The translations under genes were made by a program, and so were the position numbers. Positions 639 through 30,891 of a stretch of 32,000 bases of DNA are shown here, piece by piece (position 1 is the first letter of the stretch; the number at the start of each line of letters is the position of its first letter). The notes below the pieces were generated by a model that was given only the letters and a program-made list of their open reading frames with translations, was not told the DNA's origin and did no database searches. The stretch is from Alkalilimnicola ehrlichii MLHE-1 (GTDB lineage: Bacteria; Pseudomonadota; Gammaproteobacteria; Nitrococcales; Halorhodospiraceae), in NCBI RefSeq assembly GCF_000014785.1, contig NC_008340.1, positions 2,670,001-2,702,000 of the forward strand, read 5' to 3'.

Positions 639-2450
639 ATGCCCGAGATACTGCGCAAAACCCTGGACCTGCTCACCGCCCGCGAGAAGCGCCGTGGCGC
701 GCTGGTGCTGGCGATGGTGGTGTGCATGGCGTTGCTGGAGACGGCGGGGGTGCTGTCGGTGGTGCCCTTTCTGGCGGTGCTGGGCAACCCGGAGGTGGTG
801 CACAACCAGCCGTTGCTGGCGGCCGCCTTCCGCTGGTCCGGGCTGGAGCGGGTGCAGGCGTTTCTGATCCTGCTGGCGCTGCTGGTCTTCCTGCTGCAGG
901 TGGTGGCGGCGGGTTTCCGTATGCTCACCCATTTCGTGCTCAACCGCTATATCGAGGGCCGCCGCCACAGCCTCAGCCAGCGGCTGCTGGAGACCTACCT
1001 GCGCCAGCCCTACACCTTCTTTCTCAACCGCAACAGCGCGGACATGACCAAGAGCATCCTCTCGGAGGTGGACATGTTCGTGCTGACGGTGATGCGCCCG
1101 CTGCTCTTCGCCACCGCCTACGCCATTGTCGCGCTGGCGATGATCGCCCTGCTGCTGTTCATCAACCCGTTGCTGGCCCTGGCGGTGGCGACCATCGTCG
1201 GCGGGCTGTACGCGCTGATGTTCCTGTCGGTGCGCGGCTGGCTGGGGCGGATCGGCCGCGAGCGCAGCCAGGCCAACCGCGAGCGCTTCGCCACCACCAG
1301 CGAGGTGCTGGGCGGGATCAAGGACATCAAGCTGCTGGGCCACGAGCAGGCCTATCTTTCGCGCTTCCGGCCGGCTTCGGCGCGCTTCACCCGCCACCTG
1401 GCCACCAGCGAGACGCTGGCCCAGATCCCGCGCTTCGCCATCGAGACGGTGGCGCTGGGCGGGGTGTTGATTCTCACCGTGGTGCTGATGGCCACCCACG
1501 GCGACGTGGGCGCCATGCTGCCCACCCTGGGGCTGTACGTATTCGCCGGTTACAAGCTGCTGCCGGCCATGCAGCATATCTATGCCGGGGTCAGTCGCAT
1601 GCGCTTTTCCGGTCAACTGGTGGCGGACATCCACGACGACCTGCGCGAGCGCCCGCGCCTGGCGCCCATCGACGGCGCACCGCCGGCACCGTTGCGGCCG
1701 CGGCGGGAGATCGCCCTGGAGGGCATCGATTTCACCTACCCCCAGGCCGATACCCCGGCCCTGCAGGGGATCGACCTGCACATCCCGGTGGGCCGGACGG
1801 TGGGGGTGGTGGGCAGCTCGGGCGCGGGCAAGACCACGCTGATCGATGTGCTGCTGGGGCTGCTGCTGCCCCAGGCGGGGCACATCCGGGTGGATGGCAC
1901 CGCCATCGATGACCGGCAGCGCCCGGCCTGGCGGCGGGCGTTGGGCTACGTGCCCCAGCATATCTTCCTGAGCGATGCCAGCGTGGCGGAGAACATCGCC
2001 CTGGGGGTGCCGCTGGAGCGCATCGACCACGCCGCGGTGGTGCGCTGCGCCCGGCTGGCGCACATCCACGAGTTCGTCTCGGGGTCGCTGCCCCGGGGTT
2101 ACGACACCCCGGTGGGTGAGCGGGGGGTCCGGCTCTCCGGTGGCCAGCGCCAGCGGCTGGGCATCGCCCGGGCGCTCTACCGCGACCCGGCGATCCTGGT
2201 CTTCGACGAGGCCACCAACGCCCTGGACAACGAGACCGAGCGGGAGGTGATGGCCGCGCTCTACGGCCTGGCGCGCAGCAAGACCATCATCATCATCGCC
2301 CACCGGCTCTCCACGGTGGAACGCTGCGACCACATCGTGATGCTGGAGCAGGGCCGGATCATCGACAGTGGCACCTTCGCCGAGCTGCTGCACAACCCGC
2401 GCTTCCGCCGTCTGGCCCAGGCCCGGCCGGGCGAGCCCGCCACCGGATGA
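639..2450 (+). CDS. Fused permease/ATPase ABC exporter (MsbA/PglK-like half transporter); no N-terminal C39 peptidase domain
   Basis: N-terminal half is hydrophobic. Walker [13 protein letters not shown] signature LSGGQRQR, Walker B ILVFDEAT and H-loop IIIAHRLS are all present. AAGGA lies 5 nt upstream of the ATG. Confidence 0.9.
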
Positions 2451-2453
2451 GCC

Positions 2454-3449
2454 ATGCTCCACCTGGTCACCCGCGCCGACTGTGATCACACCGCGCGCCG
2501 CTTCCTGTCGGCGGCGGGCCGCCGCCTGCGCGGGGTGCGCTTGCTGCACTATGAAACGCTGCTGCGGCGCCGGCGCGCCCCGTTGGGCCATTACATCTTC
2601 ACCGATTACGACCGGCTGACCGGCGCCGACGTGGACGCGGTGATCGCCCTGGCCGACGCGCTGGCGGCGCGCCGGCCGGACCTGCGCCTGCTCAACCACC
2701 CGCGCCGGGTGCTCGAGCGGGTGCCCCTGCTCTGCCGGCTGGAGGCGCTGGGGCGGAACGATTTCGGCGTGGTGCGGCTGGACACCGGGGCCCGGCCCCG
2801 GCGCTACCCGGTGTTCATCCGCAGTGAGGACGGCTGCGGCGGCCCGGAGACGGGGCTGATCCACGACGAGGCCGAGTTCGATGCCGCGCTGCGCGAGCTG
2901 GACCGCCGCGGGCTGACGCTGAAGCGGCGGATCGCCGTGGGCTTTTGCGCCGAACCCGACGCGCAGGGGCGCTATCGCAAGTACGGCGCGATGAACATCG
3001 GCGGGCGCATCATCCCGCAGCACCTCCATTGCAGCACGGACTGGAACGTGAAGTGGGGCCAGACCCGCTACCAGGCGGCGCTGGCGGCCGAGGAGGTGGA
3101 CTATCTGCGCGATAACCCCCACCGGGAACAGTTGCTGGAGATCTTCCGCATCGCCGGCATCGATTACGGGCGCATCGACTACGGCTTCGCCCGCGGCCGA
3201 CTGCAGACTTACGAGATCAACACCAACCCGGCCCTGCCGCGCTTTACCAGCCGCCATGGGCTGCGCGCCGGCCGCCACGACCTGATCCGGCCGGCGATGA
3301 TCGAGGCCTTCCAGGCCCTGGACGATCCGCCGGTGCCCCGGGGCCGGGTGCGCTTCCGCTGGGCGGACGACGGCGGGCCGAGCCTCTCCGCGCTGCGGCG
3401 CTCGATCCTCTACCGCCGGCTGCGCCAGCTCTACCACCGCTGGCTGTAG
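2454..3449 (+). CDS. ATP-grasp-like protein, paralog A (paralog of 11475..12446)
   Basis: ATG is 3 nt after the ABC stop codon. C-terminal block GIDYGRIDYGF…YEINTNP resembles the ATP-grasp Mg/ATP-binding E-x-N region. It aligns by eye with the second copy over most of its length. Confidence 0.55.
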   Translation: MLHLVTRADCDHTARRFLSAAGRRLRGVRLLHYETLLRRRRAPLGHYIFTDYDRLTGADVDAVIALADALAARRPDLRLLNHPRRVLERVPLLCRLEALGRNDFGVVRLDTGARPRRYPVFIRSEDGCGGPETGLIHDEAEFDAALRELDRRGLTLKRRIAVGFCAEPDAQGRYRKYGAMNIGGRIIPQHLHCSTDWNVKWGQTRYQAALAAEEVDYLRDNPHREQLLEIFRIAGIDYGRIDYGFARGRLQTYEINTNPALPRFTSRHGLRAGRHDLIRPAMIEAFQALDDPPVPRGRVRFRWADDGGPSLSALRRSILYRRLRQLYHRWL

Positions 3450-3496: not shown

Positions 3497-4897
3497 ATGG
3501 ATGACCACACCGCCCCAGGAGGGAGCATGCGCCGTCCAGACGAGGGCACCCTTGCCCGTATCGCCGAGGCCCTGGCATTCACGCCCACGGCAGCCTACTC
3601 GGCCCCCCACGATTACCCGCACGCCGCGAACACCTTCGAGCCGGCGCCCCGGCTGGCCCGGGAGCGGGTGGACGCGGACGTCTACCGACTCTATGCCCAT
3701 GTGCCCTTCTGCAACTACGCCTGCTCCTTCTGCTGCTACGCCAAGAAAGTGGGTGTGGAGCGCGAGCAGATGGCGCGCTACGTGGCGACCCTGAAGCGGG
3801 AGCTGGAGTGGATTCCCGAAGGCACCCCGGTGAACCAGTTCTTTATCGGCGGCGGCACCCCCACGGCGCTGCCCGCCGACCTGCTTGATGAACTACTGGG
3901 CGCCATCGCCGGGCGGATGCCCTACCACGGCGACCCGGTGCACACGGTGGAGGCCTCGCCGGAGTCCATCAGCGACGCCCATCTGGCGGTGTTGCAGCGC
4001 CACGGGGTGCGGCGGGTGAGCATGGGGGTGCAGAGCCTGGATGATGAGGTGCTGGATTCGGTACGCCGCAGCCACGGGCCGGATCTGGCGCTGGAGACCT
4101 GCCGGCGGATTATCGATGCCGGCCTGATCCTCAACATCGATCTGATATACGGCCTGCCGGGCCAGACCCACGCCGGCTTCCGGCGCGATTTCCAGCGGGT
4201 GGCGGACGCCGGGGTGCACGCGGTGACCGCCTACAACCTGCGCCTGAATGAACGCACCCCGGTATCCCGGGCCCTGAGCCCGGGGGAGCGGTTCGACATC
4301 GCCGGGCTGATGGGGTGGCGGGCCTTCGTCCGTGACACCGCCGCCGAGTTCGGCTTCTCCCAGACCCGCTGGCATACCTTCAAGCGCCTGGACACCATCG
4401 CCGCCCGCCACCAGTGGCTGCCCACCGCCGGGGCGGACATGCGGGGCCACCAGTTCGGCATCGGCATGAGCGCCCGTTCGTCGCTGGGCCACAACGTCTA
4501 CCGCAACCACCACAATCTGGAAACCTACATGGCGCGGGTGCGGGACGGCGAAAGCCCGGTGCAGGAGGTGATCCGCCTGGGGCCGCAGGACCTGCGCACC
4601 CAATTCATCGCCCGCAGCCTGGGCGACGGCCAGGTGCTGTCCAAGGCCCGCTACGCCGAGGTGTTCGGCAACGCCATCGAGGCCGACCACGGCGAGACGC
4701 TGGCCCGGTTGGCCGCCGGCGGGCTGTTGGCCGACACCGAATCCTCGGTCAGCCTCACCGAGGACGGCCGCCTGTTGCACGACCTGGTCACCCTCTCCTT
4801 CTACCCCGGGCCGGCCCGGCAGCGGCTGCTGCAGCGGCTGGACACCTTCCAACTCACCGATCTGAGTGACCGCCGGCCCCGGCCAGCCCTTCAATAA
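3497..4897 (+). CDS. HemN-like radical SAM enzyme (coproporphyrinogen dehydrogenase / class C methyltransferase family)
   Basis: CxxxCxxC motif in VPFCNYACSFCCY and HemN-type FFIGGGTP motif. An alternative start at ATG 3527 is preceded by AGGAGG. Confidence 0.85.
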   Translation: MDDHTAPGGSMRRPDEGTLARIAEALAFTPTAAYSAPHDYPHAANTFEPAPRLARERVDADVYRLYAHVPFCNYACSFCCYAKKVGVEREQMARYVATLKRELEWIPEGTPVNQFFIGGGTPTALPADLLDELLGAIAGRMPYHGDPVHTVEASPESISDAHLAVLQRHGVRRVSMGVQSLDDEVLDSVRRSHGPDLALETCRRIIDAGLILNIDLIYGLPGQTHAGFRRDFQRVADAGVHAVTAYNLRLNERTPVSRALSPGERFDIAGLMGWRAFVRDTAAEFGFSQTRWHTFKRLDTIAARHQWLPTAGADMRGHQFGIGMSARSSLGHNVYRNHHNLETYMARVRDGESPVQEVIRLGPQDLRTQFIARSLGDGQVLSKARYAEVFGNAIEADHGETLARLAAGGLLADTESSVSLTEDGRLLHDLVTLSFYPGPARQRLLQRLDTFQLTDLSDRRPRPALQ

Positions 4898-6044
4898 AGC
4901 GCCGGGCACCGCGGGCCCCGTCCAGATCGACGCCGGGGTCCGCGGGCGGCGCGTCCCGCAGCGCCCGCAGCTCATCGGCCACTGCCGCCACCGAGAAGGC
5001 CTCCGGGCGAAGCAGCCGCGCCAGCCCCCGTGCCTGCAGCCGTTCCGCCCGGCGTAACTGGTCGGACATGGCGGTATTGGGGACCAGTAGGGCCGGCCGG
5101 CGAAGCTGCAGCAACTGAGCACAGGTGTTGTAGCCGGCACAACTGATGGACAGCGCCGCCCCGCGCAGCCAGGCGCTGTACGCTGGGCCGAAGGGGTGCA
5201 ACGACAGCGCCGGCTGCCCCGCCACTGCGCGCGCCAGGGCCGGGTCCGGCGGGCCCAGGCCGCTGAACAGCGCCAGCGGCAGATCATCCAGGCCGGCCCG
5301 ACGACGGATGGCCGGCCAGTGCGCCGCCAGCCGGGCGAGCAGCGCCGCGGCGTCGCGCCCGCCGCCGATGCTGGCCACGGCGTAGGGCGACGGACCGGCA
5401 GTGGCGCCGGCCGCCCCTGCCGGCGCATCCGGGGCCAGGTCCGGACCTGGTGGGACCAGCCCGGTATGGCCCACCGACAGGCGGATGCGGCCGGCGGCCG
5501 GAAAGGCCTCCTCCAGCCGGCACAGGCCGGGGTCGGCGTGGACCATCACGGCGTCGAACCACTGGTGCAGCCGCGCCAGCACCTCCCGGACGTAGTCGCC
5601 GGCCGGGACTGGCTCGTGGCGGGTCTGCAGCGGGATATCCCGCACCGAGCAGACGGCGAGCAGGGCCGGGTTGCGCCGGCGGGCGGCCGCCAGCAGCCCG
5701 GTGACCTCCGCCCCCAGGCCCCACTTGCTGAAGGGGTAGTGCTCGACGATGACCACGTCCGGGGCCAAGCGGGCCACCGCGCCGGCCAGCCGCCGGGCGC
5801 GCTCCGGCCAGACAGCGGCGGCGGGCCTGCCGTCCAGGGTCTCCAGCCGGCCCTCCCGGCGCCGGAGGCGGGGCAGTGCCAGCAGCCGTCCGCCACCGGG
5901 GTCGGCGCCGGGAATGGACCGACCGCCGTCGCTGAGCCAGACCGTGTGGTGGCGCGCCAGCTCCCGGGTCAGCGCGAGGCCGCGCATGTAGTGGCCGACC
6001 CCGCTGAGGTGCTGGCAGTGGAAGAGGATGCGCAGGCGGGTCAC
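4854..6044 (-). CDS. GT-B fold glycosyltransferase (MurG/GT28-like C-terminus; resembles COG4671-type predicted glycosyltransferases)
   Basis: N-terminus ILFHCQHLSGVGHYMR and C-terminal CAGYNTCAQLL…PALLVP pattern. GTG start lies 10 nt after the Rieske stop codon. Confidence 0.65.
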   Translation of the reverse strand: MTRLRILFHCQHLSGVGHYMRGLALTRELARHHTVWLSDGGRSIPGADPGGGRLLALPRLRRREGRLETLDGRPAAAVWPERARRLAGAVARLAPDVVIVEHYPFSKWGLGAEVTGLLAAARRRNPALLAVCSVRDIPLQTRHEPVPAGDYVREVLARLHQWFDAVMVHADPGLCRLEEAFPAAGRIRLSVGHTGLVPPGPDLAPDAPAGAAGATAGPSPYAVASIGGGRDAAALLARLAAHWPAIRRRAGLDDLPLALFSGLGPPDPALARAVAGQPALSLHPFGPAYSAWLRGAALSISCAGYNTCAQLLQLRRPALLVPNTAMSDQLRRAERLQARGLARLLRPEAFSVAAVADELRALRDAPPADPGVDLDGARGARRFIEGLAGAGGHSDR

Positions 6045-6054
6045 CGGGTCGCGC

Positions 6055-7287
6055 TCAGGGCTGGAGCAGCGCGATGATCTGCTCTTTGAGCGGGCTGTAG
6101 CGCACGTGGCTCATCTCGATGGCCTCGCGCAGCAGCCGGCGGCCGTCGCCGAGCTTGTTCCGCTCTTGGGCGAAGCGGATGACCCGGTTTTCCGCCTCAT
6201 CGCGGATCACGCCCATGGGATCCAGCCCGTCGGCCACCCGCTGCGCCTGCTCCAGCAGCAGGCGCCGGTAGAGCACGATGCCCTTGTCCGAGGCCACCAG
6301 CCGCTCGCGGGTGCGGTCGGCGATGGCGCCCTGACTCACCCAGACCATGATGTCGCCGCCATCGACGAAGTCGACGATGTAGTCGCCGTGCTCATCCCGC
6401 CAGGGCACCGGGTAAAGGGGGATCTCGCGCTGGGGCGGCGCGCTGCGGCCCTCCGGCGGGAGGTAGCAGGCATACCAGTAGTGGCGGGTGTGGGTGTCAT
6501 CCATCGGCACGCGGAACTGGAAGCGGTGCTGGTTGCCGGTGCCCACCCTTAAGGCGCAGGGGAAGATCAGCGGATGGCCGGTGCGCCAGTCTTCGTCCTC
6601 CTCGCTGCCCCCCGCCACGATCCGCCGCTTGATGATGCCGTACTCAAAGACATCGAACCCGATGCGCTGGTGGTGCTTAAGGTACTGGGTGGGGGCGGGC
6701 TCGCCGCGCTCGCTGCGCACCCCGGCCAGGTGGTGGCCGTGGAGCCACTCCACGTGCGCCGGGTCGACGCTGTTCTCCATGATCTGCAGCCAATTGCAGG
6801 GCAACTCGGCGACACCGATGTCGCGCAGGGCATCGTCCTGCAGCAGCAGGTCGTAGCGGGGCAGCAACGGCGCGGGATCGGGCCCGATGTAGGCAAACAC
6901 CAGGCCGCCCAGCTCCTGGACCGGGAAACCCCGGGTGGCCGCGCGCCGGAGCAGCGCCGGCTTCTGTCGCGGCTCGGCGGGCATGGCCAGGCAATGGCCG
7001 TGGTGGTCGAACTTCCAGCCGTGGTAGGGGCAGGCGATGCCCTCCTCATCCACGTGGCCGCACCGCAGGGAGGCGCCGCGGTGGGTGCAGTGCTCGTCGA
7101 TCAGCCCCAGCCCGCCGGCCGGCGTGCGGAAGAGCACCAGGTCCTCGCCCAGCAGCCGGCGGGCCAGGGCCCGGCCGGGACGCACCTCCACGCTGGCGGC
7201 CAGCGGCCACCAGTAGCGGCGCAGCAGCTCGCCCATGGTCGTGCCGGGGCCGATGCGGGTGAGGGTCTCCTGGCGCTCCGGGGTCAT
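6055..7287 (-). CDS. Rieske [2Fe-2S] non-heme iron oxygenase, alpha-subunit type
   Basis: Rieske motif CTHRG…(17)…CPYHGW. Mononuclear iron motif ENSVDPAHVEWLH (E-x3-D-x2-H-x4-H). The ATG overlaps the methyltransferase stop codon (ATGA). Confidence 0.85.
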   Translation of the reverse strand: MTPERQETLTRIGPGTTMGELLRRYWWPLAASVEVRPGRALARRLLGEDLVLFRTPAGGLGLIDEHCTHRGASLRCGHVDEEGIACPYHGWKFDHHGHCLAMPAEPRQKPALLRRAATRGFPVQELGGLVFAYIGPDPAPLLPRYDLLLQDDALRDIGVAELPCNWLQIMENSVDPAHVEWLHGHHLAGVRSERGEPAPTQYLKHHQRIGFDVFEYGIIKRRIVAGGSEEDEDWRTGHPLIFPCALRVGTGNQHRFQFRVPMDDTHTRHYWYACYLPPEGRSAPPQREIPLYPVPWRDEHGDYIVDFVDGGDIMVWVSQGAIADRTRERLVASDKGIVLYRRLLLEQAQRVADGLDPMGVIRDEAENRVIRFAQERNKLGDGRRLLREAIEMSHVRYSPLKEQIIALLQP

Positions 7288-8027
7288 GGCCGCCCCTGCC
7301 CCCGCGCGCCGCTCTCCGGCGCGCCACCGGCTTCGGCACCCGGGAAGCGCCGGCGCAGCCCCTCCGGGTCACCGGGTCGACCCTGGACCAGGGTGAGCCC
7401 GCTGGCCACCGGCAGGGTGAACAGCTCCAGCCCGGGATCGGCGCGCAGGGCCGCCATCAAGTCGCAGACGCTGTGCTGGTAGGCCCGGTCCTCGCCGTAG
7501 AAGGTGCTGGTCCGGCGTACGGTGCTGTCGTGGAACAGGGTGATGGCGCCGGTATCCAGCTTGGGGAGGAAGGCCAGGTAGTCGTAACAGGCCTGTGCCG
7601 CGGTGTGCAGTCCGTCCACCATCAGCAGCCCCACCGCGCCCAGTCCGGCGTAGGCCGGGTCGGCCGCGAAGGACTGCGTGGTGTGGCGGTGGTGGCGCAC
7701 GTTGGGTGTGCCCAGGGCGTCGAAATGGGCCTCCACGGCGCCGGGATCGGCCCAGAAGCCGTCGGCGAAGGAGGGGTCGATGAAGTGGACCTCGCCGCGC
7801 TCCTGGTTGTCGTTCAGCGCGCGGGCGATGACGCTGGGCGCGAAGCCCCGGTAGGACCCGATGACCACCGCCCGCTCCGGCCTAAGGATGCGGCCCAGGG
7901 CGTAGTAGAGCCAGCCCAGGCCCAGGTTGTGGTCGGCCAGGCGCTGGCCGTGCCCCATGCGCAGCAGATCCGGCTGCTCGAACAGCCGGCCGATGAAGCC
8001 ATCCAGGGTGGTGGCGGGGTCGGTCAT
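7284..8027 (-). CDS. Probable class I SAM-dependent methyltransferase (CmcI/TylF-like)
   Basis: VVIGSYRGFAPS glycine-rich motif at the position expected for a SAM-binding loop. Size is about 250 aa. Translationally coupled to the Rieske gene. Family call is by recall. Confidence 0.5.
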   Translation of the reverse strand: MTDPATTLDGFIGRLFEQPDLLRMGHGQRLADHNLGLGWLYYALGRILRPERAVVIGSYRGFAPSVIARALNDNQERGEVHFIDPSFADGFWADPGAVEAHFDALGTPNVRHHRHTTQSFAADPAYAGLGAVGLLMVDGLHTAAQACYDYLAFLPKLDTGAITLFHDSTVRRTSTFYGEDRAYQHSVCDLMAALRADPGLELFTLPVASGLTLVQGRPGDPEGLRRRFPGAEAGGAPESGARGQGRP

Positions 8028-8136
8028 CTAGGGTGTTTTCCCGGCATTGGCGGTGAATGGGTTGGAATCAGGCCTTCTAGGACTAATCGACCATGGGCCC
8101 ACCGCTGTCAAGCGGTTGCGGCCCGCCACCCGCGGC

Positions 8137-10188
8137 TCAGTGGGCGTCATCGCCCGGGCCCGGGTCGTCCGGCGGCGCGTAGACGGCCTGCGCCCGGGTG
8201 TAGAACAGCGGGTCCCAGACGCCGTGCTCCGGGGGGCCGATGGCGGAGGCCTTCCAGCCGCCGAAGGGTGCCCGCGGGTCGATGGCCGCGCCGGCGCCGT
8301 TGAGTCGCAGGAGACCGGCCTGCGCCTGGGCCAGGAAGCGCCGCTGCACCGCCGGATCGTTACTGTACAGGGTCGCGGCCAGCCCCTGGGGCACGCCGTT
8401 GAGCCGGTCCAGCGCCTCGTCGAGGTCCGCCACCGGCACCAGCACCACCACCGGGCCGAAGCTCTCCTGCTGCATGCACTCGGCGTCCGGGGGCAGGCCG
8501 GTGAGCACAGTGGGGGCGTACCAGTTGCCCTGGGCCCAAGCCGGCGGCACCCGGCCGCCGCAGAGCACATTGGCGCCCGCGGCGCGGGCGCGGGCGACGA
8601 TGCCCTCGATCCGCGCCTGCGCGGCCCGGGAGACCAGCGGACCGACAACGGTGTCCGGCGCCTCCGGCCGGCCCGGGCGCAGCGCCTGCACCCGGGCCAG
8701 GAAAGCCTCGGTGAAGCGGTCCAGCACCGAGGAGGCCACCAACAGGCGGCGCACCGCGGTGCAGCGCTGGCCGGCGAAGCTGAAGGCGGCCCGGGCGAGT
8801 TCCCCGGCGGCCCGTTCCGGGTCGGCGTCGGCCATGACCAGGGCGGCGTTGTTGCCGCCCAGCTCCGCCTGCAGGGGCGTGCCGTGCAGCGCGCAGGCGG
8901 CCGCCACCTGGCGCCCGGCGGTGATGGAGCCGGTAAAGCTCACCGCCTGCACCCGGGCATCGGCGGCCAGGGTGTCGCCGGTGGCCGCCCCGCCCTGCAC
9001 CAGGTTCAGCACCCCCGGGGGCAGGCCGGCGTCCAGACCGGTCTGCATCAGCATCCGCGCCAGTTCCGGGGCCTCCGGCGCCGGCTTCCAGACCACGCTG
9101 TTGCCCCAGCGCAGGGCCGGTCCGATCTTGCCCAGGGGCAGCGCCAGCGGGTTGTTCCAGGGGGTGATGGCGGCCACCACCCCCCGGGGCCGGTGGCGCA
9201 CGCTCACCCCCGGCGCCAGGGCCCCGGGCGGGGTCGGTGCCATGGGCTCGAGGCTGGTGGCCAGCAGGGCCAGGGCGTAGTCGAACTCCGCCCCGGCCTC
9301 GAGGGAGGGCTTGCCCACCTCCCGGATCAATGCGGCCACCAGTTCGTGGCGCTGCTGTTGAAGCCGCGCTTCCCAGGCCTTCAGCATGGCAATGCGCTGG
9401 CTGTCCGGCAGTGCCGCCCAGCCCGCCCCGGCCGCCCGGGCGGCCTCCACCGCCGCGCCGACCAGGGGGGCGTCGGCGGCGCCGGTCCGGCTGAGGATCC
9501 GCCGGTGGTCACAGGGGTCGTGGCGGGTGAGCTGCTCCGGCGCGGCCGCCCGATGCCATTGCCCGGCGATGCAGGCGGCGGGCTGCAGGTCGCGCCCGGG
9601 TGTCGGCCTGCGCGTTGCCGCCCCGCCGTCATCCGGCTCACCCAGGCGCGCCCGGATGTCCGCCGTGGTCAGCGCGGCGCAGGCCCGATCCGCTAGGTGC
9701 CTCAGCGCCAGGCGGGCGTGCAGCGGGTCGTAGGAGGCCACCGCATCCACCGCCAGCCAGACCTGGAAACCGGCCTGGTAGGCGTCCAGCACGGTGGCCT
9801 GGACACAGGCATGGGTGTGCAGGCCACTGACGACCACTGTGTCCACGCCCTGCTCGCCCAGCCACGCCGCGGTCCCGGCCCCGCCGAAAGCACTGTAGTA
9901 GGGCTTGGCCAGGACGGCTTCACCCGGTGCCTCGGCCAGGGCCGGCGGTGGGGCCGCCCCGGGGGTGCCGCCGACGCAGGCCCAGTGGGCCCGGCGCTGC
10001 CAGTGGGGCATGCGGTTATGGCCGTCCGCGGCGATAAGGGTGCGGACATGGCACACCGGCAGGCTGCGGCGACGGAAGCCGTCCAGCAGCGTCCGGGCCT
10101 GCCGGATGGCGGCCCCGGCCTCGGCCGCATCAACCCCCCGGTCCAGGTAGTCCTGTTGCCAGTCCACCAACAACAAGGCGGCACGCAT
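8137..10188 (-). CDS. Fusion protein: N-terminal isochorismatase-family cysteine hydrolase plus C-terminal aldehyde dehydrogenase
   Basis: N-terminus has LLLVDWQQDY and VSGLHTHACVQATVLDA, typical of the isochorismatase fold. C-terminus has ALDH motifs ELGGNNAALV and FSFAGQRCTAV (catalytic Glu and Cys). I prefer ATG 10188, 2 nt after the upstream stop codon, over the track start at 10233. Confidence 0.8.
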   Translation of the reverse strand: MRAALLLVDWQQDYLDRGVDAAEAGAAIRQARTLLDGFRRRSLPVCHVRTLIAADGHNRMPHWQRRAHWACVGGTPGAAPPPALAEAPGEAVLAKPYYSAFGGAGTAAWLGEQGVDTVVVSGLHTHACVQATVLDAYQAGFQVWLAVDAVASYDPLHARLALRHLADRACAALTTADIRARLGEPDDGGAATRRPTPGRDLQPAACIAGQWHRAAAPEQLTRHDPCDHRRILSRTGAADAPLVGAAVEAARAAGAGWAALPDSQRIAMLKAWEARLQQQRHELVAALIREVGKPSLEAGAEFDYALALLATSLEPMAPTPPGALAPGVSVRHRPRGVVAAITPWNNPLALPLGKIGPALRWGNSVVWKPAPEAPELARMLMQTGLDAGLPPGVLNLVQGGAATGDTLAADARVQAVSFTGSITAGRQVAAACALHGTPLQAELGGNNAALVMADADPERAAGELARAAFSFAGQRCTAVRRLLVASSVLDRFTEAFLARVQALRPGRPEAPDTVVGPLVSRAAQARIEGIVARARAAGANVLCGGRVPPAWAQGNWYAPTVLTGLPPDAECMQQESFGPVVVLVPVADLDEALDRLNGVPQGLAATLYSNDPAVQRRFLAQAQAGLLRLNGAGAAIDPRAPFGGWKASAIGPPEHGVWDPLFYTRAQAVYAPPDDPGPGDDAH

Positions 10189-10190
10189 GG

Positions 10191-11339
10191 TCAGGCCCGC
10201 GCCCCCTGCAGTACTTCGGTCAACGACGCGCACAGGGCCTGGCCCATGGCCCGGGTGCCCACCGCGGTGGGCTGCGCGCCCTGAATATCGGCGGTGCGCA
10301 CGCCCCGGGCGAGGGTCCGGGCGATGGCCGTCTCCAGGGCATCGGCCAGTGCCGGCAGGCGGAAACTCTCGCGCAGCATCATGGCCAGCGAGCAGACCTG
10401 GCCGATGGGATTGGCCCGGTCCCGGCCGGCCAGGTCCCAGGCGGCACCGTGGGCGGTCTGGTAGACCGCCTGGCCGGCGGCGCCGTAGTTGCCGGACCAG
10501 GACATGCCCCGCGAGCCCATGAGCAGGCTGCCGCAGTCGCCCAGGATATCGCCGAACATGTTGGGGCAGACGATGACGTCGAACTGCCGGGGGTCGGCGA
10601 TGAGCTGGTAGGCGGCGTTGTCCACCTCCAGGGTCCGGCAGCGCACGGCGCCGTGCTCGCCGGCGACCGCGGTCAGGGCGTCGTGCCAGAGGGCGCTGAT
10701 GGCAGGCACGCCGCCCGGTTTGGTGACAACGACCAGGTCACCGCGCCGCTGCCCGGCCAAGCGGAGGGCCGTGCGCAGGATGCGCTCCACCTCGTCGGCC
10801 CGGTAGCGGCAGACCTGGTAGGCGCTGCGCGCCGCACCCTCGCCTTCACTGCCCCACTCGCCACAGTAGAGCCCGCTGGCATTCTCGCGCACGATGAGGA
10901 CGTCCGCCGAGCGGGCGGCCTCCGGGCGCAGCACGCCGGCATCAGCCAGGGCGGGCCAGTGGCGCAGCGGGATCAGCTTGCAGTAGAGGTCGAAGTGCCG
11001 GCGCAGGTCGTAGACGAAGCGCCCGCCCCCGGGGCCACAGAGCACCGCCCCGCCCTGAGCGAAGACCTGAGCGCAGAAGTCGCGCACCTCCGGGGTCAAG
11101 CCGCGACCAGTGAGGCGCTCGGCCTGCCGGCCGATGGGCCCGCCGGTGCGCACCTCGAAGCGCTGGCCGGTGGCCTCGCCGAGGAGCCGCAACAGCGAAA
11201 GAGCAACGTCGATGACTTCCGGGCCGACGCCCTCCCCCGGCAGCACCCCGACCAGAAAGGCCTCACCGCGCTCCGTGCCCGTGCCACGGGGCGGTGCATG
11301 GTCGGTGCCGGGGTGCGACGGGCAGGCTTCGGGGTGCAC
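10191..11339 (-). CDS. Isocitrate/isopropylmalate dehydrogenase family oxidative decarboxylase (IPMDH/tartrate-DH-like)
   Basis: VLPGEGVGPEV N-terminal motif and family signature NMFGDILGDCGSLLMGSRGM. The GTG start at 11339 gives an extension of about 20 aa, so the start is uncertain. Confidence 0.8.
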   Translation of the reverse strand: MHPEACPSHPGTDHAPPRGTGTERGEAFLVGVLPGEGVGPEVIDVALSLLRLLGEATGQRFEVRTGGPIGRQAERLTGRGLTPEVRDFCAQVFAQGGAVLCGPGGGRFVYDLRRHFDLYCKLIPLRHWPALADAGVLRPEAARSADVLIVRENASGLYCGEWGSEGEGAARSAYQVCRYRADEVERILRTALRLAGQRRGDLVVVTKPGGVPAISALWHDALTAVAGEHGAVRCRTLEVDNAAYQLIADPRQFDVIVCPNMFGDILGDCGSLLMGSRGMSWSGNYGAAGQAVYQTAHGAAWDLAGRDRANPIGQVCSLAMMLRESFRLPALADALETAIARTLARGVRTADIQGAQPTAVGTRAMGQALCASLTEVLQGARA

Positions 11340-11474: not shown

Positions 11475-12446
11475 TCAGGGCAGACGCGGGGTGCGCCGCC
11501 ACTCCCGGCCACGCCAGAGGTCGGCGAGACGGTCACGCAGCGAGCGCGGGTCGTGCAACGGCACCGGCCGGCCCGAGGCGGGCCCGTCGATCTCCGCCAT
11601 GGCCGCGATGAGCTGCCGCTGGGCGCTGCGGTAGCTGTCGAGACGAATGGGATAGGGGTGGGTGCGCAGCCGCCCCACGTGGGGGTTGGTGTTGATCTCA
11701 TAGACCTGGGGCCGGCCGCCGATTAGGGCGAAGTCGGCCCGGCCGTAATCGATATGACCGGTCTCGAAGGCGGGCGCGAGTGCATCGGCAAAGGGATTGT
11801 CGTTGACCAGCCGGAGCTCATCCTCGTACAGCGCCTGGCCGGCGATGCCGTTCTGGCCGTATTTCGCCGCCCAGTGATCCTGGTGGGCGCACAGCGCCGG
11901 GACGATTCGCCCGCCCACCCGGTAAGCGGCCAGCTTGCGGTAGAGCCCGTCGGCCACCGGCTCGGCGTGGAACTGGACGACCATCAGCTCGCGGCGGGGT
12001 ATCCCCCGGTCGATCGCCTCGGCCACCGCCTGCGCCAGGGACTCGGGGGTGTCCAGGCACCCGGTCAACGGGCCGCGGTGGGCGGACTCGGTGCGCAGGA
12101 AGACGGGGTACGCCCCGTCCGGCGGCGTCTCATCGACGCGCCAGACACCGAAGTCGTTGAACCGCCGGGCATGCAGATCGCGCAGCAGTTCGAAGCGTGA
12201 GCGCACCCGTGCCGGGTCGTTGAGCACGCACGCGCCGGCCTCGCGCAGTTGCCGGTGGATCCGCCCGGCCATCTCCAGGTCCCAGAAGTTGAGGCGGTCG
12301 AAATCGGTGAAGATGTAGGTGGCACGAGGCAGCCGCCGCCGGCGGAACAGCCGGTGGTAGGACATGACCCGGAAGTCGAAGGCATCGGATTGCTGCAGCG
12401 GGCGGTGGGTGTGCGCGTGCGCCTGGGTGCTGAACAGGACAATCAT
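11475..12446 (-). CDS. ATP-grasp-like protein, paralog B
   Basis: Shares blocks with 2454..3449: YIFTD[YF]DRL, NDFGV, YPVF[IL]R, AEP…YRK…GGRI[IV]P, IDYGR.D, YEINTNP. Its start overlaps the HExxH gene stop codon by 4 nt. Confidence 0.55.
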   Translation of the reverse strand: MIVLFSTQAHAHTHRPLQQSDAFDFRVMSYHRLFRRRRLPRATYIFTDFDRLNFWDLEMAGRIHRQLREAGACVLNDPARVRSRFELLRDLHARRFNDFGVWRVDETPPDGAYPVFLRTESAHRGPLTGCLDTPESLAQAVAEAIDRGIPRRELMVVQFHAEPVADGLYRKLAAYRVGGRIVPALCAHQDHWAAKYGQNGIAGQALYEDELRLVNDNPFADALAPAFETGHIDYGRADFALIGGRPQVYEINTNPHVGRLRTHPYPIRLDSYRSAQRQLIAAMAEIDGPASGRPVPLHDPRSLRDRLADLWRGREWRRTPRLP

Positions 12447-13438
12447 CCGGTGGCGTGGTCCATGTACGCTTTGGCGTTGGCCATGAGGGCGCGCCCGTGC
12501 CGGCTCAGAAGGCCGTGGGCGGCGACCACCTCGTGGCCGGCGCGGAAGTTGGCGGCGTCCTCCGCCATGGCCTGGCGCGCACCGGCCCGCTCGGCCTCGT
12601 CCAGCAGCCCCGAGTCCAGCAACCGGCCCATGGCCCAGTGCATGCGGGCGGAGACGAAGGTGGCGTGGTAGATGCCGTCCATGGGCCGGGGGTCTTGGCG
12701 CAGCGGCGAGGGGTAGAGCTCCTCGTCATGATTGAGGACCAGCGGGGCCTCGGTGCAGAAGCCGAACAGCAGGCTGTGCGCGCTCTCGTGGGCGATGACC
12801 TCGGCCATGGCAATGCGGTCGGGATGCGCCCCGGCGTTGAGAAACAGCGCCCCCCAGAGCTGAAAGTGGGAGCCGCCGTGGAACTCGCCGGCGTCATGGT
12901 CGCCACCGGCCACGCCGACCACGTGGTGGACGATGGCCTCCACCTCGCCGGCCAGCTCCGGCGCGGCCTGCCGCAGCAGCCCAAGGCCCTCGTGGTAGCG
13001 CTGCACGAAGGCCGTCTCCAGTTCCGCCGGCGGCGGATGCAGCGTCAGCCCCGTCGGCATCTCCGCCATCATCTTATCCTGGTAGAGGCGACTGGTGGCG
13101 CACGCCGATGGCGGTCGCAGCCCCTCGACCCGCTGGCCATCCGGCAATGGCGGTTCGTTGCCGATCCTCTGAAAGGCGGTCCGGGCCTGCGCCAGGTCGC
13201 CGTCCAGCAGGTCGATGACCAGGTCGTAGTAGCGGCCGAACAGGCTCGGGGCGTGCGCCTGTCCCGTGGCGAGCCGGCTGAGCAGGGGATCCAACGACAG
13301 GTCGGGCAGCGGGGTGTGGGCGTTGAAGCGCTCGAAGACGTACCCGAGGCTGGCGCCCAGCTCACGGTGCATGGCCTGATCCAATTGCCCCGCCCGTTCC
13401 GGATCGGGCTCGAACCCATAGTGCACCGTGGCCGTCAC
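12443..13438 (-). CDS. HExxH-motif protein (putative metal-dependent peptide-modifying enzyme, possibly aKG-HExxH / TIGR04267-like)
   Basis: VIAHESAHSLLF motif in a soluble protein with real-protein composition. GTG start with AGGGAG 6 nt upstream. Family membership was not verified. Confidence 0.6.
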   Translation of the reverse strand: MTATVHYGFEPDPERAGQLDQAMHRELGASLGYVFERFNAHTPLPDLSLDPLLSRLATGQAHAPSLFGRYYDLVIDLLDGDLAQARTAFQRIGNEPPLPDGQRVEGLRPPSACATSRLYQDKMMAEMPTGLTLHPPPAELETAFVQRYHEGLGLLRQAAPELAGEVEAIVHHVVGVAGGDHDAGEFHGGSHFQLWGALFLNAGAHPDRIAMAEVIAHESAHSLLFGFCTEAPLVLNHDEELYPSPLRQDPRPMDGIYHATFVSARMHWAMGRLLDSGLLDEAERAGARQAMAEDAANFRAGHEVVAAHGLLSRHGRALMANAKAYMDHATG

Positions 13439-13491
13439 GCGCCACTCCCTTGCTGTTGTTACTCGGTTGTCGCGCTCGGTCCCGCCGGTGG

Positions 13492-13653
13492 TCAGGTGAC
13501 CTTCATGCCCACCTTGCCGCCGACTTTCGCCCCGATGGTGGTGGTCCGGTCGAGTACCTTGTCGCCCACCTTTGCGCCGGTTCTGACGCTGCTGTCGAGC
13601 CGGAAGCCCAGCAGGCGGCGGGCATCCAGATTGATGCCGTCGGTCTTGTCCAT
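13492..13653 (-). CDS. Unlisted small ORF (53 aa), candidate precursor/scaffold peptide: MDKTDGINLDARRLLGFRLDSSVRTGAKVGDKVLDRTTTIGAKVGGKVGMKVT
   Basis: Hand-translated, ATG 13653 to TGA 13492. GAGGGGA (13660-13666) lies 6 nt upstream of the ATG. About 47 of 53 codons end in G or C. Same strand as the HExxH gene and 53 nt upstream of it. Confidence 0.5.
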   Translation of the reverse strand: MDKTDGINLDARRLLGFRLDSSVRTGAKVGDKVLDRTTTIGAKVGGKVGMKVT

Positions 13654-13823: not shown

Positions 13824-15023
13824 ATGACGGCGCGCCGCGTGCAACTGCTCAAGGTGGTCTCGGGGCTGGATATCGGGGGGGTGCGTAGCGCAGAGCTCGG
13901 TTTCACCGCCGAGTTGCAGGCGCGGGGGGTCGGCGTTGGCGGCGTAATCGTGACCGGGGGCGCCATGGCCGCCCGTTACGCCCGGCTGTTTGACGGCCAC
14001 TGGCTGCTGGACACCCGTCTGCCCGAGTTCCGAGGCGGACGGTGGGAGCGGCTGCGCCGAACGGTGGTAAACCTGGGGCGCAGCCGGCAGGGCGCCCGGC
14101 GGCTGGCCGGTGACCTTCGCGGGACCCGGTGGGCGTCGGCGGGCACGGTGGTGGCGGTGCGCCATGCGCCGCTGCTGCCTCTGGCCGCGCTGCTGGCCCG
14201 CCGGCTCGACCTCCCGTTGCTCTGGCACATGCCCAACCCGGTCCACGACCGGCTCGGCCGGGCCTATTTCCAGGCCCTGCTGCGTCTGGCCGGCGGCACG
14301 GCGGTGGGCAATAGCCGCTACACCCTGGCCAGCCTCGGCGCCGGCGATGGCCCGGTGATCTATCCCGGCTTCTCCCCCGCCCGGGTGGCCCTCGACGAGA
14401 CCGCCCCCGAGCTGCGGGCGTCGCTGGGCATCCCGGCCGCGGCGCCGGTATTCGCGGTGGTGGCCCGGCTCACCCCGGACAAGGCCACTGACTGGGTGCT
14501 GGCGGCCTTTCTCGATTCGGCGGCCTTTCGCAACGGGGCGCATCTGCTGATCGCCGGCGGCCCGCTGGACTCCCGGTTCGCCCTTGACCTAAGGGCTCAC
14601 GCCGGTGAGGCGGGCGACGGCCGGGTGCACTTTCTCGGCGAGGTCGAGCAGGTGGCGCCGGTTTACCGGGCCGCGGATGTGCTGGTGGCGGGCCGGCGCA
14701 CGGTGGAACCCTTCGGGATCTCGCTGGTGGAGGCCATGGCCTCGGGACTGCCGGTCATCGCCCCGGGCGGCGGGGGGCCGGACGAGGTCGTCACCGACGG
14801 GGTGACCGGGTGGTTGCTGCCGGACCGGGGCGTGGCAGCCTATACCCGGGCGCTGGACCGCGCCTGGTCGGACCGCGCCCGCTGGCCGGTGATGGGTGGG
14901 CAGGCGCGCACCGCCGCCGCGCCGTTCAGCCTGGCGCACCAGGCCGGCCGCTACCTGCAACTGGTGCGGGCGGTGCTGGACCCGGACGGCGACGACCCGG
15001 CGCCCATGGTGAGGGCGCGTTGA
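13824..15023 (+). CDS. Glycosyltransferase family 4 (GT-B, retaining type)
   Basis: EPFGISLVEAMASGLPVIA (E-x7-E motif). Confidence 0.85.
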   Translation: MTARRVQLLKVVSGLDIGGVRSAELGFTAELQARGVGVGGVIVTGGAMAARYARLFDGHWLLDTRLPEFRGGRWERLRRTVVNLGRSRQGARRLAGDLRGTRWASAGTVVAVRHAPLLPLAALLARRLDLPLLWHMPNPVHDRLGRAYFQALLRLAGGTAVGNSRYTLASLGAGDGPVIYPGFSPARVALDETAPELRASLGIPAAAPVFAVVARLTPDKATDWVLAAFLDSAAFRNGAHLLIAGGPLDSRFALDLRAHAGEAGDGRVHFLGEVEQVAPVYRAADVLVAGRRTVEPFGISLVEAMASGLPVIAPGGGGPDEVVTDGVTGWLLPDRGVAAYTRALDRAWSDRARWPVMGGQARTAAAPFSLAHQAGRYLQLVRAVLDPDGDDPAPMVRAR

Positions 15024-15029
15024 AGACCG

Positions 15030-15737
15030 ATGGGGGACGACGTGACGGACAGCATCGCCGTGTTACAGGCCCGGACCACCTCCCGCCGACTGCCCGCCAA
15101 GGTGCTGCTTCCGGTGGGGGGACTGCCGCTGGTGGTGCTGGCCGCCCGGCGCGCGGCGAACACCGGCCGGCGGGTGCTGGTGGCCACCTCCACCGATCCC
15201 TCGGACGACGAGCTGGCGCGGGTGGTGCGCGCGCATGGGCTGGCCTGTGCGCGCGGCAGCCTGGAGGACACCCTGGGGCGGTTCGTCCAGGTGCTGACCG
15301 ATTACGCCGATGACACGCTGGTCTTCCGCCTGACCGCGGACAACGGACTGCCCGACGGGCGCCTGCTGGATGACCTGGCCGACGACCTCCACCGGCGGGA
15401 CCTGGACTACCTGGCCTGCAACGGGGCGCCCTGTGACCTGCCCGACGGTTTCAGTGCCGAGGTGACCCGGCTGCGGCACCTGCGCGCCGCCCACCGCGGG
15501 CCCACCACGCCCTACGACCGCGAGCACGTCACGCCCGCGGTGATCCGCGCCCGGGGACAGGCCTGGTTCACCGGCTACGCCGGTCGCGGGCTGGCGGGCC
15601 AGCGCTGCACCATCGACACCCTGGATGACTACCTGGCCGTCTGCCGGCTGTTTGTGGGCTACGCCGACCCGGTCGGCACGCCAGCGACGCGCCTGCTGGA
15701 GGCCTTGGCCACCCCGGCCCGCGATGCCCATGCCTGA
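15030..15737 (+). CDS. SpsF-like cytidylyltransferase (acylneuraminate/CMP-sugar cytidylyltransferase family)
   Basis: N-terminus IAVLQARTTSRRLPAKVLLPVGGLPLV is typical of the SpsF/COG1861 family. Lies in the same operon as PseG-like and NeuB-like genes. Confidence 0.7.
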   Translation: MGDDVTDSIAVLQARTTSRRLPAKVLLPVGGLPLVVLAARRAANTGRRVLVATSTDPSDDELARVVRAHGLACARGSLEDTLGRFVQVLTDYADDTLVFRLTADNGLPDGRLLDDLADDLHRRDLDYLACNGAPCDLPDGFSAEVTRLRHLRAAHRGPTTPYDREHVTPAVIRARGQAWFTGYAGRGLAGQRCTIDTLDDYLAVCRLFVGYADPVGTPATRLLEALATPARDAHA

Positions 15738-19122: not shown

Positions 19123-19131
19123 CGAGCGCGC

Positions 19132-20253: not shown

Positions 20254-20254
20254 C

Positions 20255-30100: not shown

Positions 30101-30200
30101 GGGGGGCCTCCGCGTGGTTCGTACTGTTTATGGTTGAATCGTCATTGTGACGGGCAAGGCGTTGAAGTGATAGGTACGCTGCTGCTCGCCATGATGTTAT

Positions 30201-30888
30201 GGATTGCTTCGCTGCGCTCGCAATGACGGGGGTGGCACCTCCCCGGCCCTCTTGATGAACATGGCCAGACGCTGCGGGCGCCCCCTACCCTCACTGCGAG
30301 CGCGGCCCCACCCCCACCGTCACTGCGAGGAGGCGAAGCCGACGTGGCAGTCTACCGCCCTGGATCGCCGCGGGCCTGCGGCCCTCGCGATGACGGTGGG
30401 GGCGTATCCCCCGGCCCTCGCGATGACGGTGGGGCACCTCCCCCCGCCACTGCGAGGAGCGCAGCGACGTGGCAGTCCATGCGCTGCCTGGATCGCCGCG
30501 GGCCTGCGGCCCTCGCGATGACGGTGGGGGCGTATCCCCCGGCCCTCGCGATGACGGTGGGGCACCTCCCCCGTCACTGCGAGGAGCGCAGCGACGTGGC
30601 AGTCCATGCGCTGCCTGGATCGCCGCGGGCCTGCGGCCCTCGCGATGACGGTGGGGGCGTATCCCCCGGCCCTCGCGATGACGGTGGGGCACCTCCCCCG
30701 TCACTGCGAGGAGCGCAGCGACGTGGCAGTCCATGCGCTGCCTGGATCGCCGCGGGCCTGCGGCCCTCGCGATGACGGTGGGGGCGTATCCCCCCGGCCC
30801 TCGCGATGACGGTGGGGGCGTATCCCCCCGGCCTGCGCGATGACGGGGGGACGGCTCCCCCCGCCTAGCGATGACGGTCGGCGGCCTT
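30201..30888 (-). repeat. REP/BIME-like array 4: inverted orientation, four near-identical units of about 127-128 bp plus degenerate ends
   Basis: G[TC]CACTGCGAGGAG starts at 30318, 30446, 30573 and 30700. Units 30446-30572 and 30573-30699 differ at a single position by eye. This is the reverse complement of the array 1-3 consensus. Confidence 0.9.
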
Positions 30889-30891
30889 TCC

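Follow-up and report, generated by a model that had tools for sequence, protein, structure and literature searches.

Graspetides are, to our knowledge, the only established class of RiPPs (peptides of ribosomal origin that undergo post-translational modification) to be built by ATP-grasp ligases. In pheganomycin biosynthesis, the ATP-grasp enzyme PGM1 joins a free non-ribosomal acid to the N-terminus of a ribosomal peptide. The α-ketoglutarate-dependent HExxH (aKG-HExxH) hydroxylases have been recognized as RiPP enzymes only recently. In this family ChlH acts on Asp and His, PflC/PosC acts on Gln with oxidative cleavage, the nitrilobacillin pathway modifies Pro, and BpmH belongs to the biphenomycin pathway (PMC12636437, PMC13060819). 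In the corallotide system the graspetide synthetase CorB and the 2-oxoglutarate (2OG) oxygenase CorC act on KxxxD repeats, and isopeptide formation is followed by 5-hydroxylation (PMC13097080). The locus described here lies in a 32,000-nt stretch of Alkalilimnicola ehrlichii MLHE-1 (the window, to which all window coordinates refer). It carries two paralogous ATP-grasp genes, copy A and copy B, together with genes for an aKG-HExxH-type hydroxylase, a 53-aa peptide and a fused ATP-binding cassette (ABC) exporter. We consider it probable (roughly 0.7) that two separate systems stand back to back in the window, and that each has its own member of a single uncharacterized ATP-grasp family. The peptide, the hydroxylase and copy B (set 1) would form a RiPP-type module, and copy A would belong with the remaining enzymes between the two ATP-grasp genes (set 2).

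Copies A and B show 38% identity over 273 residues (BLASTP, E = 3e-43). An earlier note on this DNA had aligned the two proteins along their length, and all of its shared blocks (YIFTD[YF]DRL, NDFGVxRxD, YPVF[IL]R[ST]E, AEP, YRK, GGRI[IV]P, DNP, IDYGRxD and YEINTNP) are present in the BLASTP alignment. It had also assigned both proteins to the ATP-grasp fold and suggested that they may be a distinct clade. Structure prediction supports the fold for both copies, while the scans of model libraries do not reach it: copy A has no Pfam or NCBIfam match, and copy B has no NCBIfam match and a sole Pfam match that is sub-threshold and unrelated (DUF6743, E = 0.066). Both copies are thus members of an uncharacterized ATP-grasp family without a Pfam or NCBIfam model. 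The UniRef label for both is 'ATP-grasp domain-containing protein' and the NCBI label is hypothetical. The AlphaFold2 models are confident, with a pLDDT of 93.7 and pTM of 0.91 for copy B and 89.8 and 0.87 for copy A. Foldseek against the PDB at E ≤ 1e-3 gives 234 matches for copy B and 365 for copy A. The best 50 for each copy are all ATP-grasp-fold proteins, aligned over about 300–360 columns, and the top matches have E-values of about 1e-9 to 1e-8 over about 320 columns. Copy B matches RimK best (5zct, 5.8e-9), then LysX, ArgX and the D-Ala-D-Ala ligases (Ddl); copy A matches ArgX best (3vpb, 2.2e-9), then RimK, Ddl, LysX and an L-amino-acid ligase. At the fold level, superposition on RimK/LysX extends along the entire chain, and the earlier impression that the N-terminal halves are unlike RimK does not hold up.

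Direct sequence similarity to characterized enzymes is faint. Single-sequence PDB searches with both copies returned nothing meaningful. A 37-member family profile has the D-Ala-D-Ala ligases as its sole significant match in the PDB (E = 0.007), over about 55 residues that contain the C-terminal GRxD...ExNxxP motif; LysX appears only at E = 1.7. An hhalign comparison of the family profile with single E. coli RimK and DdlB sequences gives probabilities of 1–4% (RimK 1%) and served for residue correspondence only, not as evidence of homology. In this correspondence, G235-R236-x-D238...E250-x-N252 of copy B aligns with GRxD...ExN of DdlB (GR255xD257...E270xN272) and with D...ExN of RimK. The Arg of the Ddl GRxD motif stabilizes the acyl-phosphate step. 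R118 of copy B is aligned at the position of the Lys in RimK 'PLVVKLVEG', which is presumably ATP-binding. In each of the two clades, conservation is 90% or more at R118, K171, K195, G235, R236, D238, E250 and N252, and judging from these residues both copies look catalytically competent. Since confident models, fold matches and the conserved aligned catalytic residues agree, the ATP-grasp assignment is secure on the predicted structures. The three-domain α/β fold expected of the superfamily, in which ATP sits between the central and C-terminal domains, is present, as are the conserved Mg/ATP and acyl-phosphate residues with the phosphate-binding Lys/Arg, and ligation activity is predicted.

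The family is large. In a library of 1.84 billion representatives, a profile that also reaches A-type proteins matches 2,200 clusters with a threshold of E ≤ 1e-3, and 1,288 when the threshold is E ≤ 1e-30. B-type proteins have 782 matches in a 90% clustered database, and the copy A subfamily has about 80. Six of ten long family members carry C-terminal tetratricopeptide (TPR) repeats (P0220, P0226, P0265, P0267, P0268 and P0275), which bind peptides or proteins and are consistent with a peptide or protein substrate. The other forms contain a family 2 glycosyltransferase (GT2; P0252), a TctC-like solute-binding domain (P0298), a marginal DUF7024 (P0236) and a tandem ATP-grasp duplication (P0201). 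The idea that the long members are Rosetta-stone fusions to an HExxH or methyltransferase-like (MT-like) partner was dropped, six of the ten carrying TPR repeats instead.

In a neighbor-joining tree with 41 sequences of each type, two clean clades emerge when the three remotest entries of the A list are set aside. Mean identity is 53% among B-type sequences, 42% among A-type sequences and 32% from one clade to the other. From these identities the A/B split is judged to be old, and a recent duplication of copies A and B was rejected since the clades are old and separate. Their sister clades are old and the gene partners of one clade do not occur with the other, so a common peptide substrate for copies A and B is unlikely.

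The partner of the B-type gene is the aKG-HExxH hydroxylase. Relatives were present in 241 of the reference genomes scanned, and from these 80 B-type loci spread over many phyla were kept. The best is 64% identical to copy B; the source genome itself is not among the matches, perhaps because its record is masked or missing in that collection, and absence of a genome from the scan is weak evidence. When every window protein was compared with these loci by tblastn, the HExxH gene adjoined the B-type gene in at least 71 of the 80. The loci with both genes span Gamma-, Beta- and Alphaproteobacteria, Cyanobacteria, Gemmatimonadota, Myxococcota, Verrucomicrobiota and Planctomycetota. No other window enzyme travels with the B-type gene: the radical S-adenosylmethionine (SAM) enzyme, glycosyltransferase, Rieske oxygenase and methyltransferase are found in 0 of 80 loci, and the isopropylmalate/isocitrate dehydrogenase-family enzyme (Iso_dh) and the isochorismatase-aldehyde dehydrogenase fusion (Iso-ALDH) in one each, as lone weak matches. 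Three layouts recur. The HExxH gene is directly upstream of the ATP-grasp gene, usually with an ATGA or GTGA overlap; or the two are separated by a gene of about 1.5 kb; or they are divergently oriented, some 400 bp apart. Nine loci have no HExxH match. Three of them have HExxH fragments at a contig edge, and in four more the ATP-grasp gene lies within about 1.7 kb of a contig end (on short contigs in three), so that only L039 and L074 look genuinely HExxH-less. In L039 (Myxococcota, 9704..10957) a divergent precursor with the LLGF motif accompanies the B-type gene, no HExxH gene lies within 10 kb and the neighbors are ordinary dehydrogenases, which suggests that the ligase-precursor pair is able to work without a nearby hydroxylase. 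The window HExxH protein matches NCBIfam TIGR04267 (9e-35; 120 bits, where the cutoff is 40) and ChlH (PDB 8s5f, E = 6.7e-7) with the HExxH motif aligned, and is by these sequence matches a true member of the aKG-HExxH hydroxylase family.

The 53-aa peptide of the window has a leader with LDxxRLLGFRL and a core with K-V-G-x-K units. tblastn with this peptide finds only four loci, and motif-based scanning of open reading frames (ORFs) was needed. A strict regular expression picks up homologous small ORFs in 62 of 81 loci, and inspection by eye adds further ones; they are placed immediately upstream of the HExxH gene or within the divergent gap. By the same expression, the precursor adjoins the HExxH gene in 58 of the 72 HExxH-bearing loci. 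Some loci have two to five tandem precursor copies. The leader profile is [RK]-[IV]-x-L-[DN]-x-x-[KR]-L-L-G-F, where the final F is found in 89%; the first L and the G are required by the search pattern and hence reach 100%. The core is a (K-Phi-G-x)n tetrapeptide repeat, Phi being hydrophobic. Its profile is anchored on K-Phi-G, with Lys at position 0 and Gly at +2 by construction; position +1 is I in 36%, V in 31% and L in 20%, and Lys recurs at +4 (86%), +8 (45%) and −4 (40%). Gly accounts for 16% of the core and Lys for 15%. The C-terminal residue varies (A, S, T, V or L, among others), and a RimK-like C-terminal extension was rejected as the precursor C-terminus is not conserved.

A second type of precursor has the pattern ...KLLGFSN...KNDTMVGxKG followed by a cationic-aromatic tail rich in Arg, Lys, Trp and Phe (e.g. 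GSGKRRKKWWRWWW). It is found mainly in Hyphomonas and relatives (L027, L029, L030, L040, L043, L048, L065, L069, L023, L028 and L052), at about 7240..7420 in loci taken with 10-kb flanks, and always in loci where a gene for a flippase of the multidrug/oligosaccharidyl-lipid/polysaccharide (MOP)/Wzx type separates the HExxH gene from the ATP-grasp gene. Its tail is similar to those membrane-active peptides that are rich in Trp and Arg. The element common to both types is Phi-G-x-K. Pfam and NCBIfam scans of three precursors gave no match, and the exact window peptide was not found in a collection of 15 billion proteins. Short precursors with a conserved leader and a variable core thus lie beside modifying enzymes, as is general for RiPP modules, and modification of the peptide is predicted. 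The precursor, aKG-HExxH hydroxylase and B-type ATP-grasp apparently make up a widespread, undescribed RiPP-type family, whose chemistry can be proposed from these features. Searches of the available paper library found nothing linking an HExxH hydroxylase to an ATP-grasp enzyme, and searches on IPR026337/TIGR04267, on the set-2 gene combination and on Alkalilimnicola with RiPP found nothing describing either system.

These results bear directly on the microviridin-type layout that the earlier note had proposed, in which an ester and an amide ATP-grasp ligase would join side chains within the 53-aa peptide, with secretion by the ABC exporter. The two paralogs, the small ORF and the exporter gene do lie within 13 kb, and the window core includes Asp, Thr and Lys. 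However, neither copy matches any of the graspetide-ligase models in NCBIfam and Pfam at E ≤ 0.1, and no graspetide synthetase is among the best 50 Foldseek matches of either copy. From the first repeat unit to the C-terminus, 28 of 73 type-1 precursors are free of Asp and Glu, so a side-chain lactam or lactone is unlikely as the general reaction. Only 2 of the 80 B-type loci have two ATP-grasp copies, the A-type clade is never accompanied by precursors or HExxH genes in eight other loci, and copy B has a hydroxylase as its conserved partner, a gene that the earlier note had named only as a neighbor. The ABC exporter, whose pathway is ambiguous, has no C39 peptidase domain by Pfam. The LDxxKLLGF leader and the (K-Phi-G-x)n core also appear unrelated to the microviridin motifs. 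A microviridin or graspetide system is therefore highly improbable here.

Copy A has a different genomic context. The eight other A-type loci represent seven distinct contexts (L081/L092, L082, L083/L084, L085, L086, L090 and L091), and none of them contains an HExxH gene or an LLGF/K-Phi-G precursor. Instead, a homologous MT-like protein of about 290–305 residues, with faint methyltransferase similarity, is found beside the A-type gene in all seven of these contexts, which lie outside the Alkalilimnicola lineage. Neither the window nor any of the 80 B-type loci has it. Unannotated A-type neighbors were also considered as cryptic HExxH proteins and rejected, having neither the motif nor any similarity. 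In Thioalkalivibrio thiocyanodenitrificans (L081/L092) the A-type ortholog is 54% identical to copy A, and its cluster shows synteny with the window genes from 3497 to 11339, at identities of 42–79%. Its eight genes (L092, 849..10999) encode an Iso-ALDH fusion, an MT-like protein of about 297 residues, Methyltransf_24, Iso_dh, a Rieske oxygenase, a GT28-like protein, a HemN-like radical SAM enzyme and the A-type ATP-grasp. The cluster is bounded by a divergent Mur-ligase-domain gene on one side and by a methyltransferase/MerC gene and a sigma/anti-sigma pair on the other, and contains no set-1 genes. Because it stands alone with its own boundaries, set 2 is an independent cluster conserved across genera, in this case two genera of haloalkaliphilic Gammaproteobacteria. 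The A. ehrlichii version has lost the MT-like partner and is flanked by the ABC gene and set 1.

Other systems occur near A-type genes. The Mur-ligase-domain protein of L092 (1..472) has 904 residues and is possibly cyanophycin-synthetase-like, and a Peptidase_S15/PepX and ATP-grasp_4 gene pair lies at 16350..19687; both belong to unrelated ATP-grasp systems. In the Myxococcota loci L082 (12889..15721) and L085 (10680..13524), a multinuclear non-heme iron-dependent oxidative enzyme (MNIO; MbnB/TglH family) with a 259-aa partner and a cytochrome P450 lies a few kb from the A-type gene. This set is RiPP-like and unrelated to the HExxH module.

Gene calls in the window are based on bias in third-position G+C (GC3), and domains on Pfam and NCBIfam scans (Table 1). 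The GC3 value is 0.93 for copy A and 0.80 for the stop-to-stop frame containing copy B, in a window of about 72% G+C. The junctions are as the earlier note had read them. The ABC exporter gene and copy A are separated by three nucleotides (TGA-gcc-ATG), and the exporter is probably co-transcribed with copy A. The HExxH gene and copy B share an ATGA overlap, and the 53-aa ORF with its Shine-Dalgarno sequence is just upstream. The plus- and minus-strand gene strings converge, and their 3' ends overlap at 4854..4897. The Iso_dh-family gene begins 135 nt downstream of copy B.

Table 1. Features of the 32,000-nt window; TMD, transmembrane domain; NBD, nucleotide-binding domain; GT, glycosyltransferase
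Feature	Position	Strand	Evidence and remarks
Fused TMD+NBD ABC exporter	639..2450	+	Pfam ABC_membrane and ABC_tran, NCBIfam; MsbA/PglK/HepA type
Copy A, A-type ATP-grasp, 331 aa	2454..3449	+	ABI57696.1 / Q0A641 (100% identical); set 2
HemN-like radical SAM enzyme	3497..4897	+	Pfam Radical_SAM and HemN_C; set 2; 76% ortholog in L081
GT28_C-like glycosyltransferase	4854..6044	-	Pfam; set 2; 52% ortholog in L081
Rieske non-haem iron oxygenase (LigXa_C/VanA_C-type catalytic domain)	6055..7287	-	Pfam; set 2; 79% ortholog in L081
Methyltransf_24 SAM methyltransferase	7284..8027	-	Pfam; set 2; 71% ortholog in L081
Isochorismatase-aldehyde dehydrogenase fusion (Iso-ALDH)	8137..10233	-	Pfam; set 2; 42% ortholog in L081/L092
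Isopropylmalate/isocitrate dehydrogenase-family enzyme	10191..11339	-	Pfam Iso_dh 8e-73; set 2; 50% ortholog in L081
Copy B, B-type ATP-grasp, 323 aa	11475..12446	-	ABI57703.1 / WP_011630096.1 / Q0A634 (100% identical); set 1
Stand-alone aKG-HExxH-type peptide hydroxylase	12443..13438	-	HESAH motif; ABI57704.1 / Q0A633 (100% identical); set 1
53-aa precursor-like peptide MDKTDGINLDARRLLGFRLDSSVRTGAKVGDKVLDRTTTIGAKVGGKVGMKVT	13492..13653	-	Shine-Dalgarno GAGGGG and ATG, GC3 0.85; apparently unannotated; set 1
GT1	13824..15023		Glycan set beside peptide module
CMP-sugar cytidylyltransferase	15030..15737		Glycan set
474-aa ORF, no assignment	15625..17049		Glycan set
GT28_C-like protein, possibly PseG type	17042..18079		Glycan set
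NeuB and SAF	18076..19122		Glycan set
GT61	19132..20340	-	Glycan set
PKD-domain protein, 867 aa	21163..23766	-	
517-aa ORF	27007..28560	-	No Pfam match; low-G+C region
Acetate kinase and phosphotransacetylase-family gene	28919..31992		

A surface-glycan/nonulosonic-acid gene set at 13824..20340 adjoins the peptide module in the window, and B-type modules elsewhere also often sit among polysaccharide genes (RmlC and RmlD in L001; GT2 and Bac_transf in L005). Between 27000 and 29000 the G+C content falls to about 58%, and this region may have been acquired horizontally. The transporters beside B-type modules are diverse, with a major facilitator superfamily protein in L001, ABC proteins in L005 and L044 and a MOP/Wzx-type flippase inside the operon in 18 loci.

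Several observations weigh against the division into two systems and against the peptide chemistry that we attach to set 1. The precursors were called by motif, only eight other A-type loci enter the comparison, and the example of L039 implies that hydroxylation may not be obligatory. Set 1 and six set-2 genes form one unbroken minus-strand string with short gaps and without a predicted terminator; promoter and terminator scans of the window found no site marking operon boundaries. Co-transcription of the two sets, with set-2 enzymes acting on the peptide in A. ehrlichii, is therefore conceivable. The ABC exporter adds to this. Its gene order with copy A and the radical SAM gene is kept in a metagenomic locus (L089) with an 89% relative of copy A, and no ABC exporter lies next to the A-type gene of T. 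thiocyanodenitrificans; the closest exporter ortholog outside that lineage (54%, Thioalkalivibrio sp. ALJT, L005) adjoins two precursors, an HExxH gene and a B-type gene. The allegiance of the exporter is ambiguous, since it is operonic with copy A here and its ortholog sits with set-1 genes. The two ATP-grasp junctions also share an identical 13-nt string, CGCCACCGGATGA, at 2438..2450 (+) and 12455..12443 (-), up to and through the stop codon 5' of each ATP-grasp gene. As a result, the ABC and HExxH proteins both terminate in Ala-Thr-Gly-stop. None of 2000 shuffles reaches a shared word of 13 nt, and the identity does not continue upstream of the string. The string is partly retained in L089 and absent in T. 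thiocyanodenitrificans, and may be a recombination relic or a translational-coupling element.

Taken together, the same-strand run from precursor to glycosyltransferase, the exporter ortholog in a set-1 context, the shared junction string and the loss of the usual MT-like partner of copy A could describe one hybrid cluster in A. ehrlichii, where the set-2 enzymes and copy A carry out further tailoring of the modified peptide or supply copy B with its acyl donor, and the ABC protein exports the product. We regard this as unlikely. Set-2 genes are missing from the B-type loci except for the two weak matches, set 2 stands alone in T. thiocyanodenitrificans, and the partners of A-type and B-type genes are mutually exclusive.

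The structural comparison allows another function for the ATP-grasp enzymes. For copy A, ITPK1 kinases (7tn3, 2q7d and 9dn3) and synapsin appear among the Foldseek matches at E-values similar to those of the ligases. If copy B were a kinase, it would phosphorylate the hydroxyl that the HExxH enzyme had introduced; this would either complete the modification or drive elimination to a dehydro-amino acid, which a neighboring Lys could attack. This would suit cores without a carboxylate substrate and a hydroxylase that is a near-obligate partner. We find it improbable, as the conserved Gly-Arg-x-Asp aligns with GRxD of Ddl, the top structural neighbors of both copies are ligases, and L039 has a precursor and an ATP-grasp gene with no hydroxylase nearby.

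The small ORFs may also be questioned as substrates. The HExxH/ATP-grasp pair could modify a component of the cell envelope or one linked to polysaccharide, with the lysine-repeat peptides being unrelated secreted or structural products. The repeated position of the module among glycan genes, the nonulosonic-acid genes of the window, the Wzx-type MOP flippase within the operon and the family member fused to GT2 are in line with such a role, and yet every characterized aKG-HExxH enzyme has a ribosomal peptide as its substrate (PMC12636437, PMC13060819). RiPP substrates also typically show such a leader/core architecture, tandem precursors and strict adjacency, and the TPR fusions point to binding of peptides or proteins, which leaves the envelope substrate quite improbable.

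With two separate systems as the preferred reading, we infer the following course for set 1 (13653..11475, minus strand). The substrate would be the precursor of about 53 residues, with its [IV]xL[DN]xx[KR]LLGF leader and (K-Phi-G-x)n core. It would probably be hydroxylated first by the stand-alone aKG-HExxH enzyme. The likely site is Lys or the branched hydrophobic residue three positions before Lys, because these are the only invariant functional residues of the core. Copy B would then modify the peptide in an ATP-dependent acyl-phosphate ligation, which is expected because its ATP-grasp catalytic residues are intact. It would activate a free acid, as Ddl does, and transfer it to the ε-amines of the repeated Lys residues or to the enzyme-installed hydroxyls, at several sites per peptide, and the modified product would be exported. 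A free-acid donor is preferred since many cores are without Asp or Glu and the C-terminus is not conserved. This specific chemistry, a free carboxylate donor on Lys ε-amine or installed hydroxyl, is a tentative proposal with the odds against it; a single Lys-to-C-terminus lactam or ester formation are alternatives. We know of no such free-acid ligation onto (K-Phi-G-x)n for ribosomal peptides. Copy A would be the ATP-dependent ligase of set 2, acting on a substrate other than the set-1 peptide. In its widest form, the proposal makes the triad a new, phylogenetically broad RiPP class whose ligase needs no core carboxylate and decorates or cross-links Lys or installed hydroxyls iteratively with a free acid, the A-type sister clade and its MT-like partner performing the same chemistry on a non-peptide substrate. 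We hold this wider form to be quite possible, at somewhat less than an even chance.

If the proposal is true, it adds a new enzyme logic, ATP-grasp ligation onto a peptide without use of a peptide carboxylate. It would also provide a new ATP-grasp clade for biocatalysis and a new precursor family for annotation pipelines, in which the small ORF is currently uncalled. The locus also calls for caution, as two paralogs in one neighborhood need not be one pathway, and comparative genomics here splits them into two systems.

Among known systems, RimK, LysX and ArgX are the best full-length structural matches and share the Mg/ATP and acyl-phosphate motif with both copies. By sequence both copies are outside that family, with no Pfam RimK match, and R118 of copy B replaces the RimK Lys. 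All three act on the C-terminus of a protein; the conserved acidic C-terminal substrate of RimK and LysX has no counterpart in the set-1 precursors. Ddl gives the only significant sequence-profile match and is the model for activation of a free carboxylate followed by amine attack, but the similarity is limited to the short C-terminal region, and judging from gene context the substrates here would not be cell-wall precursors. The set-1 hydroxylase is in the same family as the enzymes of the described aKG-HExxH RiPP pathways (ChlH/ChlBH triceptides, PflC/PosC, BpmH and nitrilobacillin) and, as with PflC and BpmH, it is a stand-alone protein. An ATP-grasp partner or a lysine-repeat precursor is present in none of those described pathways, and their targets Asp, His, Gln and Pro are not conserved in the set-1 core. 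PGM1 has the polarity proposed for copy B, with action at the N-terminus and not at repeated Lys. Graspetides (MdnB/MdnC; CorB) and set 1 both have a leader-bearing ribosomal precursor, an ATP-grasp enzyme as key maturase (a predicted role for copy B) and repeated core motifs. Set 1 differs from graspetides in an ATP-grasp enzyme outside their ligase families (e.g. TIGR04187), in a core that does not pair conserved acceptor Asp/Glu with donor Thr/Ser/Lys, and in not having a two-ligase layout. The copy B module is thus a RiPP-type module with a predicted ATP-grasp maturase that falls outside the graspetides, and copy A represents an uncharacterized sister clade. The corallotide enzymes belong to TIGR04187 and PF13640, while set 1 combines an ATP-grasp without a model and an HExxH (zincin-like) hydroxylase, and the KxxxD repeat has an acceptor Asp that the K-Phi-G-x repeat is without. 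Both systems nevertheless bring a lysine-centred repeat together with a hydroxylase (Fe/2OG in corallotide), and by this analogy corallotide is the nearest described counterpart in logic of the copy B module.

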